A stretch of 64,000 bases of DNA from Myxococcota bacterium (GTDB lineage Bacteria > Myxococcota_A > UBA9042): assembly GCA_049317445.1 (NCBI GenBank), contig JBMOIG010000004.1, positions 5,182 through 69,181 on the forward strand, given 5' to 3'. The notes beneath the pieces were generated by a model. It had not been told where the DNA came from and made no database searches. It saw only the letters and a program-made list of their open reading frames with translations. The position numbers and the translations under genes were made by a program. Shown in pieces: positions 33,912 through 40,090 of this stretch. How positions within the stretch are numbered: position 1 is the stretch's first letter; every line of letters begins with the position of its first letter.

Positions 33912-34967
33912 ATGACCGAGACGAGACGCATGCGGTGCCTGTCGGGCATCAAGCCGACCGGGCAGCCGCACTGGGGTAACTATTTCGGGATGATCCGGCC
34001 CGCGCTGGAGCTCGCCCGCGAGCACGAGGCGTACTACTTCGTCGCCGACCTGCACGCGCTGACGACGGTGCGAGACGCCGCCCAGCTGCGCAAGGACAGT
34101 CTGGGCATCGCCGCGTCGCTGCTTGCTAGCGGTCTGGACCCGGCGAAGTCGGTGCTGTGGCGGCAGTCAGATGTGCCCGAAGTGCTCGAGCTGACTTGGG
34201 CCCTGTCTTGCGTGACCGGCATGGGTCTGGTCGAGCGGGCGCACGCCTACAAGGACGCGCGGGCCAAGGGCAAGGACCTGAACTTGGGCGTCGTCACCTA
34301 TCCCGTGCTGATGGCGGCCGACATCCTGTTGTACGACTCGGACTTGGTGCCGGTCGGCAAGGACCAAGTGCAGCACTTGGAGATGGCACGCGACATGGCC
34401 ACCTACTTCAACGTCGCCTTCATGGGCGCGCCAGAAGGGGGGACGGTCGAAGACGTCGCGTGGGACGGTCGGTTGCTGAAGCGTCCACAGGCGCTGGTGC
34501 AGCAGGCGTCGGCGGTGGTGCCGGGGCTGGACGGCCAGAAGATGTCGAAGTCGTACGGGAATACCATTCCGATGTTCGCGGGTTCCAAGGAACTCAAGCA
34601 GCGGGTCATGGCCATCAAGACCGACTCGACGCCGCTGGAGGAGCCCAAGGACCCGACCACCTGCAACGTCTTCGCGCTGTATGCGCTTTTCGCGACTCCG
34701 CAGGAGCGGGAGGCCCTGGCTGAGAAGTACCACGGTGGAAATTTCGGCTATGGACACGCCAAGTTGGCGTTGCTGGAGCTTGCTGAGCGCCACTTTGGCC
34801 CCGCCCGCGTGCGTTACGACGAGCTGATGGCGCGTCCCGACGACCTGGAAGACATTCTGGCGGACGGTGCGGCCCGTGCTCGCCTTGTCGCGCGCGGCGT
34901 GCTCGAGCGCGTGCGCGCGGCGTGCGGCCTGTCGTCTGTCGCCCACACCCGGCCCCCAGTGGCCTGA
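33912..34967 (+). CDS. trpS: Tryptophan--tRNA ligase
   Basis: Motifs SGIKPTGQPHWGNY, YPVLMAADIL, VPVGKDQ and KMSKSYGN. Confidence 0.96.
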   Translation: MTETRRMRCLSGIKPTGQPHWGNYFGMIRPALELAREHEAYYFVADLHALTTVRDAAQLRKDSLGIAASLLASGLDPAKSVLWRQSDVPEVLELTWALSCVTGMGLVERAHAYKDARAKGKDLNLGVVTYPVLMAADILLYDSDLVPVGKDQVQHLEMARDMATYFNVAFMGAPEGGTVEDVAWDGRLLKRPQALVQQASAVVPGLDGQKMSKSYGNTIPMFAGSKELKQRVMAIKTDSTPLEEPKDPTTCNVFALYALFATPQEREALAEKYHGGNFGYGHAKLALLELAERHFGPARVRYDELMARPDDLEDILADGAARARLVARGVLERVRAACGLSSVAHTRPPVA

Positions 34968-34982
34968 GCCGAACCGGAACCG

Positions 34983-35876
34983 ATGCAGAACGGACCGCGC
35001 CACCCCGAACGTGACCCTGACGTCGAGATCCTGCCCGCCGACCCACGGTGGCGTCAGGCCCGGCCGTCCGTCGTGTATGAGGTCGACCCCGCCGACCAAG
35101 CCGCGCCAAGCGAGCCCCACACTGTCCGCCGCGTCGAGACTGCCCCCAGCCGTCCGCTGGTCGTCTCGCAGCTGTGGAAGGTCGCGAAACGCTTCGCGAT
35201 GTTCCTGGCGCTTGCGCTGTTCGCCGTGTGGCTGTTCGAGCCTCTGGGGCCGGAGCCCTTGGCTCGCGCAACGGTGCTGCTGCGCGACGCGGGGTGGATG
35301 GGCAAGGGCATCGTGGTGTTGAGTGTGGCCGCCTTGGTGCCGACGCTGGTGCCGGTCGGACCCTTGGCGATCGTTCCCGGCTATGTCTGGGGCACCGTCG
35401 AGGGCACGGCGCTGGCGATTCTGGGTGCGGTGCTGGGCGGCCTGCTGAACCTGTGGATCTCTCGCCGCTTTCTTGGGCCGCATGTGCAAGCGTGGACCGG
35501 CACGAGTGAGTTGCTGGCCTCGCTGGCGGACACGATTGACGCCCGCGGCCTGCGCATCCTGTTGGGCCTGCGCCTGTCGCCGGTGATGCCGTATGGGCTG
35601 CTTTCGTACCTGACGGGTGTGACCCGCATCGTGTGGTGGCGATTTGCGCTCGCAGCGGCGCTGGGCGGCATCCCTTGGACTTCGGTCTACGGCATGGCAG
35701 GGGCGATGATGGCCGAGTCGGCCCGCGCGGTGTCCCTCGATGGGGTCGTGGCCAGCCCAGAGACGACGTGGCTGCGGTGGATCGGGCTGGGCTTCACCGT
35801 GCTGGTCGCCGTCTGGATTGGCCGGGTGGCGCGTGCGGACCTGACGCGCAATCGAGCGATGCGGAGGCCCGCATGA
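34983..35876 (+). CDS. TVP38/TMEM64 (DedA/VTT) family membrane protein
   Basis: Multiple transmembrane segments and LRLSPVMPYGLLSYLTGVT. Confidence 0.88.
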   Translation: MQNGPRHPERDPDVEILPADPRWRQARPSVVYEVDPADQAAPSEPHTVRRVETAPSRPLVVSQLWKVAKRFAMFLALALFAVWLFEPLGPEPLARATVLLRDAGWMGKGIVVLSVAALVPTLVPVGPLAIVPGYVWGTVEGTALAILGAVLGGLLNLWISRRFLGPHVQAWTGTSELLASLADTIDARGLRILLGLRLSPVMPYGLLSYLTGVTRIVWWRFALAAALGGIPWTSVYGMAGAMMAESARAVSLDGVVASPETTWLRWIGLGFTVLVAVWIGRVARADLTRNRAMRRPA

Positions 35877-36619
35877 CCAGCGCAGCGCCGGTGCGGTCCG
35901 AGCCTGCCCGCCGCGCGCTCGACCAGACCTGCGTGACCGTGTTGGGCTGCGGCGGTCTGGGCGTGCCGGCCGCGTGGACGTTGGCGCTGGGCGGGGTGAA
36001 GCGGCTGCGGCTGGTGGACCCCGACGTGGTCGAACTGGCCAATCTGCATCGGCAAGTGGCGTTCGGGCAGAGCGATTTGGGCGTTCCCAAGGTCGATGCG
36101 CTGGCCCGCTGGCTGCAGTCCAGGGTGCCGGGGCTGGCCATCGAACGCGTGGTCGCCCGAGTGACGGCCGACACCCTCGACGAGGTGCTGCGGGGCTGCG
36201 ACGCCGTGGTCGAAGGGACCGACGACACGCTCTCGAAATTCCTGGTGAATGACTGGGCCATCCGTCCCGGACCGGGCGGGCGCACCCGAGTCGCCACGAT
36301 CGCCGCCGCCATCCAGCGCAAGGGCCAGGTGTTCACCGTCACGCCCCACGGCGCCTGCTACCGTTGCCTGTTCGAGGAACCGCCCCCGCCGGAGTGTGTC
36401 GGTACATGCGCCGTCGCCGGCGTGATGGGACCCGCAGTGGGGCAGGTCGGCGCTTGGGCCGCGCGGTCACTGCTGGCCGTGCTGCAGGGGCAGGCGGACC
36501 CGGCCGAGTCGGCGTTGCTGCGGCTGGACCCGCGCGGCGTGCACCGCACGGCGGTTTCCCCAGCCGGCGACTGCCCTTGCGCAGCGTCACGGCTGACCGG
36601 CGGGAGGGTCCATGCGTGA
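35873..36619 (+). CDS. HesA/MoeB/ThiF (E1-like) adenylyltransferase lacking the N-terminal RYxRQ helix
   Basis: Motifs GCGGLG, DPDVVELANLHRQ, PKV, EGTDD, CYRC...GTCAVAGVMGP and terminal DCPC. ATGA overlap with the upstream gene. Confidence 0.9.
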   Translation: MTSAAPVRSEPARRALDQTCVTVLGCGGLGVPAAWTLALGGVKRLRLVDPDVVELANLHRQVAFGQSDLGVPKVDALARWLQSRVPGLAIERVVARVTADTLDEVLRGCDAVVEGTDDTLSKFLVNDWAIRPGPGGRTRVATIAAAIQRKGQVFTVTPHGACYRCLFEEPPPPECVGTCAVAGVMGPAVGQVGAWAARSLLAVLQGQADPAESALLRLDPRGVHRTAVSPAGDCPCAASRLTGGRVHA

Positions 36620-37604
36620 CCCGCGCCAAGTCTTCGCGCGCTATGGTCGGCAGCTGCTGGTGCCGGGCGCGGCTTTCCACGGCCAAGCCGCACTGCACGG
36701 CTGGGCGGCCGTGTTCGGGCACGACGGCTCCCCCGTCGCCGCGGAGGCCGCTGCCGTTGCCGCCCGCTATCTGGTCGGTGCCGGACTGGGACATGTGGCG
36801 ATTCCGCAGGCCGAGCTGCTGGCCCTGGCCGACTTGGACCCCGCAGTCGAGTTGATCGACGGACCCGGGCAAGCGGTTCCTCCGGCCGCGCACTTCTTCT
36901 TTGCCCAGCGCGGGTTTGGCATGACGGTCGATGTCGTGCGGCTGACCTCGGCGGACACCTCGCCCACGGTCTGCACGCTGCGTTGGGACGTTGGCCATCC
37001 CGCCGGAATGGTCGACGCGGTCGCCGTGGGCGCTGCGGCGGCCGGACTTTTGCTGGACGAAGTGTTTGAGCTGGCGCCGCTGCCCTCGTCGCTGTGCTGG
37101 GACTGGACGGACCCGGTCTTGCCCCGCCTGTCGCGAAAACCCCAGCCTGCGCAGCGGGTTGGCACGGTACGGGCCGACGCGGTGTTGCAAGGCGAGCTGC
37201 TGGCCGACGCCGACGCGATGCTGGTGCTGGAGCACGAGTGTCAGACCCGCGCGCCCGCCGAGGCCTGCGGTCTGTTGGTGCGAAACGGGGCAGGGCGGCT
37301 CGAAGTCGTGCCGACGAGGAATCTGCAGGACGAACGCCATGTTGCGGATCCAGACAGCCATCCCCGCACTTCGCGGACGGCATGGCAACTGGACACCCGG
37401 GTCGTGGCGAGGCAGGCCGAGCAGGGGCGGCCGCTGGTCGCGTTCTGGCACTCGCATGTGGACACCGACGCACACTTTTCGGCCGACGACCTGGCCGGAG
37501 CAGCCCCGGACGGTCAGCCCCTGTACCCCGGAGTTGCCCACGTCGTGGTGGCCGTGATTGCGGGCAAGTGCTCGGAAGTCAAGGTGTATCGTCTGGACGA
37601 CTAA
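36612..37604 (+). CDS. Fusion of an inactive ThiF/E1-like domain and a JAB/MPN (M67) metalloprotease
   Basis: N-terminal RYGRQLLVPGAAFHGQAAL...ARYLVGAGLG. C-terminal EACGLL...HSHVDTDAHFSADD. GGGAGG RBS. Confidence 0.85.
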   Translation: MRDPRQVFARYGRQLLVPGAAFHGQAALHGWAAVFGHDGSPVAAEAAAVAARYLVGAGLGHVAIPQAELLALADLDPAVELIDGPGQAVPPAAHFFFAQRGFGMTVDVVRLTSADTSPTVCTLRWDVGHPAGMVDAVAVGAAAAGLLLDEVFELAPLPSSLCWDWTDPVLPRLSRKPQPAQRVGTVRADAVLQGELLADADAMLVLEHECQTRAPAEACGLLVRNGAGRLEVVPTRNLQDERHVADPDSHPRTSRTAWQLDTRVVARQAEQGRPLVAFWHSHVDTDAHFSADDLAGAAPDGQPLYPGVAHVVVAVIAGKCSEVKVYRLDD

Positions 37605-37616
37605 CGGGGCCTTGGG

Positions 37617-38561
37617 TCACCACTCGGTGTCGCTGTCCAGCTCGTCGCGCAGCCGCTCGCGGGTTCGCGCGTGCGTCGCAGCTTCCGTGGGGGTGTCCGG
37701 CGCCGCAGCGGCGGCGACAAGGTCCTTGGTCGCCTTGTCGCGCCGCCCCTTGCGCACCCACCCTACCAACAGGAACAACAGCAACAGCGCGCCGCCGGGA
37801 ACCACCACCGCGGGAACGAACCATCCGTACTCCTTCTGCTTTTCGGGCAGCAGCCAGTCGCGGCTCGCCTGTTCGCGGGGCGGCTTGTCGGCGTTGTACT
37901 CAGCCAGGTAGTAGTCCACGAGCTCGTCGCGGGAGAAGCCCATCGCCATGAACACCCGCGCCCGCAGCTTGTACAGGATCGCGGGCGTACAAGTCAGCTG
38001 GCACTTGCTGAAGAAGACCGTGGCCTTGCAGCCCTCACACACGCAGCGGACATGCTCCATGAACCACAGGTAGTCCGCCTGCGGATAGCGGAACACCCGC
38101 TCGTACTCGGGACGCAGGGGCACGAACGTGCCTTCCAGCGCCTCAGCCACCTGCCGCTTGTCCGCCAGCTGGGGCGTGGATAGGGGCGCGACGCTGCGCT
38201 GGAGGTCCTCCCGAACGATCTGCGCCTGCGGGCAAGCGCACTCCTGAGGCAGCACGCTTTTGTCCACGTCGATGACAAGGTCGCCGTCCTTGTAGCAGGT
38301 GCAAGCGATGTGTTTCATCACCGCGGCCATCGCGTCGGCACGGCTGCCTTCGCTTGTCGGCACGGCGACGCCGGTCAGGGACACGGCCTGACGCTTGCGG
38401 ATTCCGGTGGCCTCGTGGAATGCAGGGTCCTCGGTCCCCGGCAGCGGGGCAGGTCCCGGGGCGGCGGGTGCATCGGTGGCCATCGCGGTCGCGGACCAGA
38501 CGGCGGCGGTCAACGACAGGGTGAACCACACGGCAAGACGGGGCGACGGTCGAACGATCAC
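37617..38561 (-). CDS. CcmH/NrfF-like periplasmic Cys protein with a duplicated domain and C-terminal TM helix
   Basis: Signal peptide, then IACTC...ECACPQA and VRCVCEGC...CQLTCTPA, GFSRDELVDYYLAEY, a W-x-x-P TM helix and an RLRDEL tail. Confidence 0.65.
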   Translation of the reverse strand: MIVRPSPRLAVWFTLSLTAAVWSATAMATDAPAAPGPAPLPGTEDPAFHEATGIRKRQAVSLTGVAVPTSEGSRADAMAAVMKHIACTCYKDGDLVIDVDKSVLPQECACPQAQIVREDLQRSVAPLSTPQLADKRQVAEALEGTFVPLRPEYERVFRYPQADYLWFMEHVRCVCEGCKATVFFSKCQLTCTPAILYKLRARVFMAMGFSRDELVDYYLAEYNADKPPREQASRDWLLPEKQKEYGWFVPAVVVPGGALLLLFLLVGWVRKGRRDKATKDLVAAAAAPDTPTEAATHARTRERLRDELDSDTEW

Positions 38562-38688
38562 AGGGACCTCGCGGGCAGGGAAGCGACGTCGCGGACTGTG
38601 CGGGCACCCCACGGCGATTGCAAGTCGATCGCACGCAAGGCAGCGGGTCTGCGGGCCTGTCGGCGATCAAACGACCACCATTTCGGGC

Positions 38689-38770: not shown

Positions 38771-40090
38771 ATGCAGAGATTCACCCAGTGTGCGGCGTTC
38801 TGTGCCCTCTCCGTAGCCTTCTTCAGCGGCTGCGGCAGCTCAGCTGGCGGTTACGGCGGCGGCTTTGTCACCGACGTGACGAACGACCAGACGACGGGCG
38901 ACACCACCATCGTCACCGACACGAAGGACACGACGACGCCGGGTGACTCGACCACGCCGCAGGACACCACGCCGGGAGGCCCGACGGCTGCCCTGAAGTG
39001 CGTCCAGACCGCCTGTGCGTCGCAGTGGGACGGCTGCAAGAGCGATGCGTCCTGCACCAAGGGCATCACCTGCATGGATGCCTGCCCCCTGAGCAATCAG
39101 GCGTGCGTGCTCGCGTGCTACGACACTTCCGGCAAGCCCCAGGCGCTGACCAACCTGCTGATGTGCGCCCAGAACACCGACTGCATCGGTCAGGGCCCCA
39201 CCTGCGGCGATGGCAAGTGCGAGACCGGCGAGACCCAAGCCAACTGCGCCGCCGACTGCGGGGCCGCCAACCAGTGTGGCAACGGCAAGTGCGACACCAA
39301 CGAGACGTCGTCGACCTGCCCGCAGGACTGCGGCACGACCGGCCCCGTCTGCGGCAACGGCAAGTGCGAGTCGGGCGAGAGCAAGGCCAACTGCGCGTCC
39401 GACTGCGGCTCCACCGGCCCCGTCTGCGGCAACGGCACTTGCGAGTCCGGCGAGACGAAGAGCAACTGCGCGGCCGACTGCAGCACCATCACCCAGTGTG
39501 GCAACGGCAACTGTGAGTCCGGCGAGACGGCCGTGAACTGCCCGGCCGATTGCGGCGGCAGCACCGGTTCCTGCGGCGACGGCACCTGCAGCGCCGATGA
39601 GACCGCTCAGACCTGCCCTCAGGACTGCGACCAGGTGATGGCGTGCGTCGCCCAGAAGTGCGCCGCCGAGTACAGCGGCTGCTTCAATAGCGCGGCGTGC
39701 AAGGGCATCTTCAGCTGCTTCGACACCTGCCCGGACGGCTCGTGCTATCAGGCCTGCTATGATCAGGGCACCCCGGCGGCTCAGGCGGGCTACGACGCGC
39801 TCGCCTCCTGCGCGCAGGCACAGGGATGCGTCAGCGGCGGCGGCGGCGACTCGTGCCAAGGCCTGTGCGACAGCCAGCCGGCGTCGGGAGCCTGCTACTG
39901 TGACGCCGGCTGCGTAGACTACGGCGATTGCTGCGCAGACTACGAGCAGTATTGCGGTGGCGGCGGCACCCCTCCCGGCGGCGATTCGTGCAAGGGCGCT
40001 TGCGGCGGCCAGTCCGGCGCCTGCTATTGCGACACGCAGTGCGCGCAGTACGGCGACTGCTGCCCGGACATCTCGCAGTATTGCCCGTAA
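38771..40090 (+). CDS. Cys-rich lipoprotein: two helical Cys modules, six CG(N/D)GxC..E...CPxDC repeats and two somatomedin-B-like domains
   Basis: Lipobox FFSGC. C-terminal SCxGxC...CYCDxxCxxYGDCCxDY/I occurs twice. Confidence 0.83.
   Translation: MQRFTQCAAFCALSVAFFSGCGSSAGGYGGGFVTDVTNDQTTGDTTIVTDTKDTTTPGDSTTPQDTTPGGPTAALKCVQTACASQWDGCKSDASCTKGITCMDACPLSNQACVLACYDTSGKPQALTNLLMCAQNTDCIGQGPTCGDGKCETGETQANCAADCGAANQCGNGKCDTNETSSTCPQDCGTTGPVCGNGKCESGESKANCASDCGSTGPVCGNGTCESGETKSNCAADCSTITQCGNGNCESGETAVNCPADCGGSTGSCGDGTCSADETAQTCPQDCDQVMACVAQKCAAEYSGCFNSAACKGIFSCFDTCPDGSCYQACYDQGTPAAQAGYDALASCAQAQGCVSGGGGDSCQGLCDSQPASGACYCDAGCVDYGDCCADYEQYCGGGGTPPGGDSCKGACGGQSGACYCDTQCAQYGDCCPDISQYCP
39190..39630 (+). 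repeat. In-frame tandem repeats of about 72-75 bp (CGNGKCESGE...NCxxDC x6)
   Basis: Near-identical units, e.g. accggccccgtctgcggcaacggc at about 39338 and 39413. Confidence 0.8.

Follow-up and report, generated by a model that had tools for sequence, protein, structure and literature searches.

How eukaryotic E1 enzymes came to split active and inactive adenylation subunits is an open evolutionary question. Two overlapping genes of a Myxococcota genome, here called A and B, raise it in a bacterial setting. From the DNA alone, an original prediction made on the 64-kb stretch that contains them (the window) had proposed that A and B form an obligate E1 heterodimer with one active site, to which a JAB protease is tied. 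We ask here whether the two proteins fit together in this way, and which ubiquitin-like protein (Ubl) they would serve.

Organization of the locus

Both ORFs were confirmed on the plus strand. They close a same-strand run that opens with a tRNA synthetase gene:

33912..34967 (+), class I tRNA synthetase (W/Y type), trpS-like; Pfam tRNA-synt_1b, 1.1e-54
34983..35876 (+), VTT/DedA-type membrane protein gene; Pfam VTT_dom, 2.7e-19
35873..36619 (+), gene A, predicted active adenylation subunit (ThiF/MoeB family), 248 aa; Pfam ThiF, 2.8e-50
36612..37604 (+), gene B, predicted inactive E1-like domain and JAB/JAMM protease in one chain, 330 aa; profile, Pfam and fold
36612..36619 (+), ATGCGTGA, the 8-nt A/B overlap, with the ATG of B and the TGA stop of A

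The order trpS-like, VTT, A, B is also found at loci L010, L012, L020 and L022. The start of gene A overlaps the stop of the VTT-domain gene in an ATGA (within 35860-35885), and a GGAGG is present 5' of the starts of both A and B, just upstream in the case of B.

Gene A, an adenylating subunit lacking the N-terminal helix

The ThiF/MoeB ATP machinery, CYRC and crossover-loop cysteine first read in gene A are all borne out. Pfam ThiF scores 171 bits (cutoff 28.1), aligning protein residues 9-226 with positions 11-225 of the 238-position profile, and the principal motifs could be located:

35945..35962 (+), GCGGLG nucleotide-binding loop, residues 25-30 (motif, family alignment)
36041..36055 (+), NLHRQ ATP-phosphate loop, residues 57-61 (alignment), of which 58-60 are predicted to contact chain B
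36356..36367 (+), CYRC, residues 162-165, first half of a probable Cys4 zinc site (alignment)
36401..36424 (+), crossover-loop segment GTCAVAGV, residues 177-184, with invariant Cys179 (alignment)
36569..36580 (+), DCPC, residues 233-236, second half of the probable Cys4 zinc site (motif)

DPD (49-51) and GTDD (115-118) are further motifs. In the family alignment (n = 16), G25, C26, G27, G28 and G30 are invariant and L29 nearly so; the P-loop as a whole, D49, D51, NLHRQ, K73, D117, CYRC, C179 and C234 are all kept. We take D49, D51, N57-Q61, K73 and D117 to be the ATP and Mg ligands by homology. The family alignment shows no insertion in the crossover loop, and neither Pfam nor the alignment gives a rhodanese or TusA domain in the A proteins of the host's family. 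Judged by domain match and conserved residues, gene A is an intact adenylating enzyme of the ThiF/MoeB type.

In homodimeric ThiF and MoeB, an N-terminal helix reaches into the ATP site of the partner. The RYxRQ of this helix was said to be missing from A, and it is indeed absent from the N-terminus, from a 135-codon in-frame upstream extension, and from all 16 A orthologues with their upstream frames included. In five of these loci (L006, L010, L004, L020 and L005) an in-frame stop lies just 6, 13, 16, 19 and 24 codons, respectively, before the P-loop.

Gene B, a degenerate E1 domain joined to a JAB/JAMM protease

Two regions were distinguished in gene B, the first with two segments of particular interest:

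36612..37151 (+), residues 1-180, degenerate adenylation (IAD-like) domain; fold and profile
36639..36653 (+), RYGRQ, residues 10-14; R10, G12, R13 and Q14 invariant in 23/23 homologues
37014..37067 (+), helix 135-152, central to the interface that the complex model predicts; G140 and A144 invariant
37179..37601 (+), residues 190-330, JAB/JAMM metalloprotease domain; Prok-JAB 1.6e-13 at 208-318

The RYxRQ start and YLxxAGxG stretch predicted for B correspond to RYGRQ and to ARYLVGAGLG (residues 51-60). L16 and V17, like the four invariant residues of RYGRQ, are kept in every one of the 23 homologues; loss of RYxRQ from homologues was the finding that would have pointed to a decaying domain. 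The HMMER alignment of B to Uba4 confirms both proposed losses, with a longer non-glycine stretch and no GxGGxG at the P-loop position, and the DxD...NLxRQ stretch missing altogether.

No Pfam ThiF match is reported for B, and the single-sequence likeness of its N-terminus to MoeB/Uba4 is not significant (E 0.024-0.03). The family profile of the N-terminus is significant (ThiF, 1.6e-5; Uba4, 3.9e-4), as are Foldseek matches of the modelled residues 1-180 (Uba4, 3.4e-5; ThiF, 5.2e-5). VIA-align places the same model on MoeB (Z 10.6, rmsd 3.6, 161 aligned), APPBP1 (Z 11.0, 149 aligned), SAE1 (Z 10.6, 156 aligned) and ThiF (Z 10.4); the scores for APPBP1/SAE1 and for the homodimeric MoeB, ThiF and MccB are tied and thus show no special eukaryotic kinship. 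Profile and fold together indicate that B 1-180 is an E1 adenylation fold whose nucleotide-binding motifs are lost. The profiles of B and A do not match each other significantly (E 0.27), which leaves no ground for calling this domain a duplicate of A.

The JAB domain scores 51 bits (cutoff 25) and is the sole Prok-JAB match above cutoff in the host genome. E217, H280-S-H282, S290 and D293 form the motif expected for an intact domain, and these residues are invariant (n = 23 sequences). By fold it resembles 2kks (Z 12.8, rmsd 2.5, 117 aligned), PfJAMM1 (Z 12.1) and Rpn11 (Z 11.3). By motif and modelled fold, the domain is an intact protease.

Predicted pairing of A and B

The A:B complex model scored 0.90, as against 0.01 for the best of 3 controls; because solved E1 homo- and heterodimers exist, this pass may partly reflect likeness to them. 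The mark used for complex scores was reached by 58/80 solved complexes and by 2/110 mismatched pairs. Contact agreement between model runs was at least 89%, and partner pLDDT at least 83. The predicted interface, modelled without ATP, includes residues 9-18 (with RYGRQ), 52-58 and 132-155 of B, and residues 32-41, 55-68 (covering L58-H59-R60 of NLHRQ) and 182-201 of A. It contains 14 of the 20 invariant residues of the B N-terminal domain while comprising only 49 of 190 residues (Fisher p = 1.3e-5).

Co-occurrence was surveyed in 37 genomes of the host's order: 31 have both genes, 5 have neither and 1 (G050) has only A. The 31 genomes with B include 30 in which A was found by search and one (G049) in which A is cut at a contig end. 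Where A does not lie beside B, an A orthologue was found elsewhere in 5/5 genomes (~345 bits vs. 134 for the next paralogue).

Fold, complex model and co-occurrence suggest that A and B complement each other as the two halves of an E1 dimer that also carries the protease; this part of the original prediction passed every check that was run, and its further claim, that the heterodimer is obligate, goes beyond these results. A could also be a self-sufficient homodimer without an arginine finger, the N-terminal domain of B serving as a docking or regulatory module for the protease, e.g., by binding the carrier or, transiently, A. MoeB and ThiF are reported not to require the finger, and E. coli TcdA to have none (PMC13139853), so that A might work alone; G050 (100% complete, 590 contigs) has A with B and carrier undetected; and JAB-E1 fusions can be homodimers, as described for BubCD (PMC11601596). 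We nevertheless consider a homodimeric A unlikely, given the complex score, the invariance of both the dimer-interface helices and the R-x-G-R-Q helix in all 23 homologues, the concentration of invariant residues in an E1-type interface, and the recurrence of N-truncated E1s accompanied by a dead E1 domain, seen at 8 other loci and at L023, including where JAB gave no match.

A ThiS-like carrier gene and related cassettes

In most relatives with both genes, the pair is accompanied by a Ubl gene. A ThiS-family gene (1.8e-12) lies immediately 5' of B in 14/22 loci, and the protein ends in AIAGG followed by C, R, G, AA or AHG. Across the host's order, this carrier is encoded in 21 of the 31 genomes that have the A/B pair, always on the same contig and just upstream of B. 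The search for a carrier ending in GG or GG-X that the original prediction had called for was thus successful in relatives but returned no orthologue in the host genome.

Similar cassettes occur in other lineages. From a phylum sample of 401 genomes, 14 loci were fetched, and 8 of these encode an N-truncated E1, a carrier (6/8), a small dead E1 protein (123-190 aa, with RYAR[QH]) and then a separate JAB gene. By their coordinates, the dead-E1 and JAB genes overlap by 4 nt in L060, L063 and L068. The model of the 129-aa L060 protein is that of a stripped-down E1 domain (pLDDT 82; ThiF E 1.9e-4; TM 0.68-0.72 on query). In both loci tested by Pfam, the E1 carries a fused TusA domain (L056 and L060; 8.5e-14 and 1.3e-14). 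L023 has an operon in the order N-truncated E1, thrC, carrier, cysM and standalone dead E1 protein, with no tblastn match to the JAB part of B at the locus; its carrier has GG as the last two residues and scores above the cutoff of the SAMP1 model (63.6 bits, cutoff 60). By gene content and order, the cassette recurs in other Myxococcota families, where the dead E1 domain has a gene of its own that overlaps the JAB gene.

We hold it probable, as the best reading of these sequences and models, that the pair is a sulfur-carrier E1 of two different subunits to which a maturation protease is tethered. In this reading, A would pair with the N-terminal domain of B in an E1-type heterodimer that has one adenylation site. 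A would contribute every residue that binds ATP or Mg, as well as the zinc site and the cysteine of the crossover loop, and B a catalytically dead dimer half together with the R-x-G-R-Q helix for the ATP site of A. We infer that the two proteins associate physically and that Arg13 of B acts in trans. Since JAB is fused to B, the protease would be held on the activating enzyme. The ancestral client would be a CysO/ThiS-type carrier with one to three residues beyond its Gly-Gly. Presumably JAB removes this tail, or frees adducts later, and A adenylates the exposed glycine to give an acyl-adenylate and then a thiocarboxylate that would feed a sulfur-incorporation pathway. The CysO/ThiS-type Ubl, together with TusA or cysM/thrC in relatives, favors sulfur transfer over an E1-E2 cascade, and the label 'eukaryote-like ubiquitin-like activation' given at first was an overstatement.

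Dual-use carriers exist in known systems of the SAMP/TtuB type, and protein conjugation of this kind could be the main role, the E1 alone placing the Ubl on lysines, JAB removing it and sulfur transfer being secondary. Along with the SAMP1-like carrier of L023, below-cutoff NCBIfam matches of A to the SAMP-activating E1 UbaA (4.1e-42, 144 bits, cutoff 450) and of the JAB of B to desampylase (4e-5, 23.5 bits, cutoff 130) favor it. We judge it improbable in view of the TusA fusions and of cysM and thrC in the L023 operon. The trpS-VTT-A-B run, by its ORFs and Pfam matches, contains no extra gene and no E2-like gene. The locus is chromosomal with conserved housekeeping synteny, and PADLOC gives no match for B and only generic E1-domain matches for A.

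Loss of the carrier from the host genome

As predicted, there is no Ubl gene in the window; PF02597 matches occur only on two other contigs of the genome. No carrier orthologue was found in the host genome (95.85% complete) or in 9 other genomes with A and B, which means that the proposed client is missing exactly in the host. Comparison of loci indicates that the Ubl gene normally lies between A and B and is lost from the host genome. Set beside CysO/QbsE-type systems, the host locus has neither a linked carrier nor a rhodanese, TusA or cysM-like gene, and the top cysM-like hits of a tblastn search of the genome lie on other contigs, at 34-40% identity.

The genomes with A and B that lack the carrier belong to genera g1, g2, g8 and part of g13. 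Rough Nei-Gojobori dN/dS values between them are 0.12-0.35 for the N-terminal domain of B, 0.11-0.23 for A and 0.17-0.49 for JAB. To judge from these values, purifying selection acts on A and B in the carrier-less genomes, and the N-terminal domain of B is not decaying. The repeated loss of the carrier with A and B retained hints at a second client; with the dedicated carrier absent, the pair in the host must use another client or have a changed role.

One candidate is the MoaD-MoaE fusion encoded in the host genome (ThiS, 3.8e-7; MoaE, 5.6e-36), with a ...SGG|SG... junction that the JAB of B could cut after Gly-Gly in carrier-less genomes, A:B perhaps activating the freed MoaD. For MoaX, an 'as yet unidentified protease' has to separate Gly82 from Ser83 (PMC4326299), cleavage of MoaD-MoaE is reported for a Deinococcus JAMM (PMC8832034), and B holds the genome's only Prok-JAB match above cutoff. 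Distribution shows no correlation: G025 and G039 have the fusion without A or B, and in genera g10 and g12 A, B and carrier are retained although MoaD and MoaE are encoded separately. The host also encodes a canonical rhodanese-MoeB with an intact RYSRH helix on contig C13, and we regard the fusion as a very unlikely client.

That the pair is a relic decaying after carrier loss, its motifs merely inherited, fits the missing carrier orthologues but is extremely improbable given dN/dS below 0.5 for all three parts, intact catalytic motifs throughout, the spread of carrier-less genomes across genera and the retained overlap of start and stop codons.

Relation to known E1 systems

Further sulfur-carrier systems that combine a ThiS/MoaD protein, a JAB protease and an E1 are CysO/Mec+/MoeZ and QbsCDE. 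Rows 4b-4d in Table 1 of Iyer et al. 2006 place a ThiS/MoaD-type carrier, JAB and E1 in one neighborhood, as in the cassette of the relatives; row 4b lists a myxobacterium, and rows 4c and 4d are linked to cysteine synthase, as is L023 through cysM (PMC1779556). Unlike A, the E1s of these rows are described as full-length, usually with rhodanese, and an inactive E1 domain, whether on its own or joined to JAB, is not mentioned in the available passages of that source (PMC1779556).

In NAE1(APPBP1)-UBA3 and SAE1-UBA2, as in A/B, active and inactive adenylation domains are on separate chains. Unlike these eukaryotic heterodimers, A/B has no catalytic-cysteine domain, no UFD and no E2 at the locus, its inactive subunit bears a protease, and its client would be a sulfur-carrier-type Ubl.

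BilD of the Bil anti-phage operons is likewise a bacterial E1 with inactive and active adenylation domains, the inactive one giving Arg9 to the active site, and a JAB peptidase pre-processes its Ubl; it is a single chain, inactive then active, with a CYS domain, an E2 and a role in defence, and all other known bacterial E1s are stated there to be homodimers (PMC10557695). A/B differs in having two genes, active then inactive, no CYS domain, no E2 at the locus and housekeeping synteny. BubCD, like B, joins a JAB peptidase to a domain with the E1 fold, and its peptidase exposes the C-terminal glycine of the Ubl; there JAB is N-terminal, the E1 domain retains its full catalytic apparatus and the protein is a homodimer (PMC11601596), while in B JAB is C-terminal and the E1 domain appears dead.

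We give slightly less than an even chance to the broader idea that several bacterial phyla hold an unrecognised two-subunit E1 class, in which an active subunit lacking the N-terminal helix pairs with a small dead E1-fold partner that keeps the helix and dimer interface. The A/B arrangement is conserved across a myxobacterial order and echoed in other lineages. Such a class, if real, would have arisen within sulfur-carrier metabolism as a prokaryotic counterpart, and possibly a forerunner, of the division of labor in SAE1/UBA2 and NAE1/UBA3, and a two-gene active/inactive E1 in such ordinary metabolism would give a simple bacterial model of the split. In the host's family, fusion of the dead subunit to a JAMM protease would represent a new way to couple the protease to Ubl activation, with one machine maturing, activating and perhaps recycling the Ubl. 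It would also correct the annotation of dead E1 partners, predicted to be unable to bind ATP and now labelled 'ThiF family adenylyltransferase'.

Yeast Tcd1-Tcd2 is, like the proposed A/B, a ThiF-family heterocomplex in which an arginine finger completes the ATP site of the partner: Tcd1 gives Arg59 to Tcd2, where the finger is non-essential. Unlike A/B, it is a eukaryotic tRNA ct6A dehydratase, with no Ubl activation and no protease (PMC13139853).

Locus organization

Gene A, which encodes a ThiF/MoeB-type E1, and gene B, which encodes an E1-like domain (B-N) followed by a JAB/JAMM domain, belong to a head-to-tail run of genes on one strand of the window:

33912-34967, + strand: class I tRNA synthetase, W/Y type (Pfam, 1.1e-54)
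34983-35876, + strand: VTT/DedA membrane protein, adjoining A and part of the four-gene run
35873-36619, + strand: gene A, third gene of the run
36612-37604, + strand: gene B, fourth gene of the run

The stop of the VTT gene and the start of A overlap as ATGA, ATGCGTGA is common to the TGA of A and the ATG of B, and GGAGG is found upstream of both the A and the B start. The A/B pair is a real, conserved feature. We think it reasonably likely that the two products form an E1 heterodimer with one active site, to which the JAMM protease is tethered, and that this enzyme serves a sulfur carrier of the CysO type; we infer a physical A:B complex, Arg13 acting in trans, and the pathway.

The gene after B is in convergent orientation (window 37617-38612, - strand); this 331-codon ORF has no Pfam match and, by eye, a hydrophobic N-terminal segment and several CxxC-like pairs. 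A secreted cysteine-rich repeat protein with two C-terminal Somatomedin B domains (2.7e-11) is encoded at window 38771-40090 (+ strand). At 10 related loci (L006:4407-4931, L005, L010, L016, L037-L041 and L054) a conserved protein of ~175 aa is encoded directly upstream of A, its gene often preceded by one for a GH31 glycosidase; neither Pfam nor a tblastn search of the window's genome gives a match for it, and its presence is not strictly parallel to that of the carrier gene described below. A PAS-GGDEF gene follows B at L016:6001-8420, comparable to the database protein P0031 (662 aa), where a B homologue is joined to PAS and GGDEF domains; the joined protein could be a true fusion or the product of a gene call that reads through. 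A defence-system reading was rejected: PADLOC gave no match for B and generic E1-domain matches only for A, and the synteny is housekeeping.

Gene A lacks the N-terminal helix

The product of A belongs to the ThiF family (Pfam, 2.8e-50). Its motifs (GCGGLG 25-30, DPD 49-51, NLHRQ 57-61, K73, GTDD 115-118, CYRC 162-165, the crossover-loop C179 and DCPC 233-236) show little or no variation among 16 orthologues, which bears out the original prediction that A has the ThiF/MoeB ATP motifs, CYRC and the crossover-loop Cys. The absence of an RYxRQ helix, also predicted, holds across the family: RYxRQ precedes the P-loop in 0 of the 16 orthologues, and the profile match of A starts at position 11 of 238. 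At L006, L010, L004, L020 and L005 the helix cannot fit before the P-loop, because an upstream in-frame stop leaves only 6, 13, 16, 19 and 24 codons, respectively. The truncation is specific to A, since a canonical rhodanese-ThiF protein encoded on a different contig of the same genome keeps the helix intact.

Gene B fuses a dead E1 domain to a JAB domain

The C-terminal part of B is a JAB/JAMM domain (Prok-JAB, 1.6e-13) with invariant E217, H280-x-H282, S290 and D293, and the model of residues 189-330 superposes on JAMM proteins (Z 12.8, 12.1 and 11.3). Matches of the N-terminus to MoeB/Uba4 as a single sequence (E 0.024-0.03) are too weak alone, and profile and fold evidence was used instead. 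A profile of 23 B homologues matches ThiF (1.6e-5) and Uba4 (3.9e-4) over residues 10-84. The AlphaFold model of B has two domains (pLDDT 84, pTM 0.72; residues 1-20 score just 53-59), and by structure superposition and Foldseek residues 1-180 match the E1 adenylation domains of APPBP1 (Z 11.0), PaaA (10.9), MccB (10.8), MoeB (10.6, 161 residues aligned), SAE1 (10.6) and ThiF (10.4), tied values that give no ground for placing the domain nearer to the eukaryotic inactive subunits. In the HMMER alignment a longer non-glycine stretch stands at the P-loop position and the DxD...NLxRQ stretch is missing; residues 1-180 are thus a dead adenylation domain, consistent with the earlier claim that B has lost the GxGGLG loop and NLxRQ yet has an intact JAB domain. 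The B and A families do not match significantly in hhalign (E 0.27), and B-N is not claimed as a duplicate of A.

If this domain were merely decaying, B homologues might lack the RYxRQ helix. Residues R10, G12, R13, Q14, L16, V17, V55-G58, G60, D76, G140 and A144 are invariant throughout, both in the window and at the 22 related loci compared (33-96% identity). Between genomes, rough Nei-Gojobori estimates of dN/dS come to 0.12-0.35 in B-N, 0.11-0.23 in A and 0.17-0.49 in the JAB domain. Judged by the invariance of R-x-G-R-Q and by dN/dS, the dead domain is not merely decaying. The B family is small, with 23 matches in 5.8 billion clustered proteins and 20 representative clusters (E <= 1e-10) among 1.84 billion.

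Co-occurrence and predicted complex

Co-occurrence was surveyed in the window's order (37 genomes, one family). B-N is present in 31 of the 37 genomes (22 of the 24 high-quality ones) and A orthologues were found in 31; in G049, A is present though seemingly absent, being cut by a contig end. The final tally is 31 genomes with both genes, 5 with neither (G025, 89% complete; G039, 92%; G044, G045 and G047, 61-69%) and one, G050, with A alone. Because the genomes are kin, this tally does not amount to a statistical test; it suggests that A and B are retained jointly and lost jointly, in line with the proposed pairing. In the one genus where A and B lie apart, an A orthologue is found elsewhere in 5/5 genomes checked (~345 bits vs 134 for the next paralogue).

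In line with the A:B heterodimer of the original prediction, A and residues 1-200 of B, each with its own alignment, scored 0.90 as a complex against 0.01 for the best control, which shows likeness to the E1 homo- and heterodimers already solved and may in part come from those structures. The mark applied to such scores is attained by 58/80 solved complexes and 2/110 mismatched pairs; contact agreement between runs was at least 89%, and partner pLDDT at least 83. The predicted interface corresponds to the classical E1 dimer interface in these models, comprising the post-P-loop helix 32-41, residues 55-68 (including L58-H59-R60 of NLHRQ) and the post-crossover-loop helix 182-201 on the A side, and residues 9-18 (the R-x-G-R-Q helix), 52-58 and 132-155 on the B side. 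Fourteen of the 20 invariant B-N residues are among the 49 predicted interface residues, of 190 (Fisher p 1.3e-5).

The carrier and its absence from the window's genome

Directly before B, 14/22 related loci have a gene of 92-98 codons for a ThiS-family protein (1.8e-12; mean column identity 75%), here called the carrier, that ends in ...PAIAGG followed by C, R, G, AA or AHG. This variable tail after the Gly-Gly is what the JAB domain would remove. A abuts B with no carrier gene between them in 7/22 loci and in the window. Carrier orthologues occur in 21 of the 31 genomes with A and B, in every case immediately upstream of B on the contig that carries it, and were not found in the other 10 (G000, the window's own genome; G023, G024, G015, G028, G038 and G040-G043). 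These carrier-less genomes represent genera g1, g2, g8 and part of g13, with A and B intact. The search across the order recovered both positive controls (2/2). In the window's own genome (95.85% complete) no carrier was found by single protein, six-frame family HMM with filters off, PF02597 or alignment. Of the MoaD/ThiS/CysO-like proteins that the original prediction proposed to look for, PF02597 matches only a MoaD-MoaE fusion and a ThiS whose gene adjoins thiG.

The fusion lies outside the window (L029:1084-1761, - strand; G000:C14:17387-18067) and matches ThiS (3.8e-7) and MoaE (5.6e-36) around an internal ...SGG/SG... junction; 31/37 genomes of the order give a single-frame match to it, and the genes are separate in g10 and g12. 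That the JAB domain of B is kept to cut this fusion has precedents in MoaX, which according to PMC4326299 requires a protease, none being identified there, and in a Deinococcus JAMM said to cleave MoaD-MoaE (PMC8832034). It is nonetheless improbable: G025 and G039 have the fusion and lack A and B, g10 and g12 have separate MoaD and MoaE genes yet retain A, B and the carrier, and the idea is not supported by any correlation in phyletic patterns.

Dead E1 proteins in other lineages

Weak matches of the B-N profile lead to standalone dead E1 proteins of about 190-260 aa (P0054, P0056, P0058, P0075, P0086, P0103-P0125, P0152, P0153, P0182 and P0183), named 'ThiF family adenylyltransferase' in MAGs labelled Nitrospirota, Binatia, Kryptonia and Deltaproteobacteria. 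Their RYSRQ-type N-terminus is invariant, the YLxGAGxG helix and C-terminal cysteines are kept, and the P-loop is degenerate, with neither GxGGxG nor NLxRQ (alignment A5, 28 of these proteins). Gene neighbours were examined at one locus, L023:1840-5809, an operon of another deltaproteobacterial MAG:

Gene 1: N-truncated E1 (match from MoeB profile position 28)
Gene 2: threonine synthase, thrC (317 bits, over cutoff)
Gene 3: SAMP1/CysO-like carrier ending exactly in GG (SAMP1 model, 63.6 bits vs 60)
Gene 4: cysM-like enzyme (351 bits, below the 394 cutoff)
Gene 5: standalone dead E1-fold protein, 203 aa, RYSRQ

The JAB part of B has no tblastn match in L023. By its gene content the operon resembles a pathway to cysteine, and perhaps also homocysteine, that depends on a carrier and uses a two-gene E1; its cysM and thrC have no close orthologues in the window's genome, where the best matches are just 34-40% identical.

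From a phylum sample of 401 genomes, 14 loci were fetched. Six have ordinary full-length E1s, and eight, from five other families, combine an N-truncated E1, a carrier (6/8 loci; C-terminus GG-R, GG-K or GG-WY in the four inspected), a dead E1 protein (123-190 aa, RYAR[QH]) and a JAB gene, whose start overlaps the dead E1 stop by 4 nt in L060, L063 and L068 (from coordinates). Both E1s tested with Pfam match ThiF from profile position 21-22 and carry a C-terminal TusA domain (L060, 8.5e-14; L056, 1.3e-14). In these N-truncated E1s (L056:275-1162; L060:2086-2985, - strand) TusA replaces the usual rhodanese, and carrier, dead E1 and JAB genes then follow. The small dead E1 proteins match ThiF positions 1-49 only, and the other genes of the loci match Prok-JAB and ThiS. 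The model of the 129-aa L060 protein (pLDDT 82.4, pTM 0.79) has E1 domains as all its best structural matches (ThiF, 1.9e-4; TM 0.68-0.72 on the query).

Since these relatives keep the dead E1 and JAB as separate genes, the window's family is set apart by their fusion. The pattern fits a JAB presence that tracks the need for trimming: L023, whose carrier ends in GG and needs no trimming, gave no JAB match, and tailed carriers go with a JAB after the dead domain.

Mechanism and known systems

For the proposed A:B heterodimer we favour thiocarboxylate chemistry rather than conjugation, as relatives fuse TusA to the E1 or have cysM and thrC in the operon. A 2006 catalogue lists operons of ThiS/MoaD, JAB and E1, among them one from a myxobacterium (PMC1779556, Table 1 row 4b). 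In the literature, of which our coverage is incomplete, no account came up of an inactive E1 partner, whether separate or fused to JAB, in sulfur-carrier systems or operons. BilD combines an inactive and an active domain in a single chain, Arg9 being donated in trans, and bacterial E1s other than BilD are stated in the same source to be homodimers (PMC10557695). BubCD is a homodimeric JAB-E1 fusion whose E1 is active (PMC11601596), and yeast Tcd1-Tcd2 is a ThiF-family heterocomplex (PMC13139853). The arginine fingers of ThiF and MoeB are reported not to be essential, and TcdA is without one (PMC13139853, 2026), which counts against the A:B pairing being obligate, as originally proposed.

Two more adjacent JAB-like and E1-like pairs occur on short contigs of the window's genome (L036:805-2567 on G000:C295; L034:675-1891 on G000:C414). 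Their PADLOC JAB match is weak (1.8e-5) and their E1-E2 matches are generic; the pairs may be modules of a defence type, with no relation to A and B.
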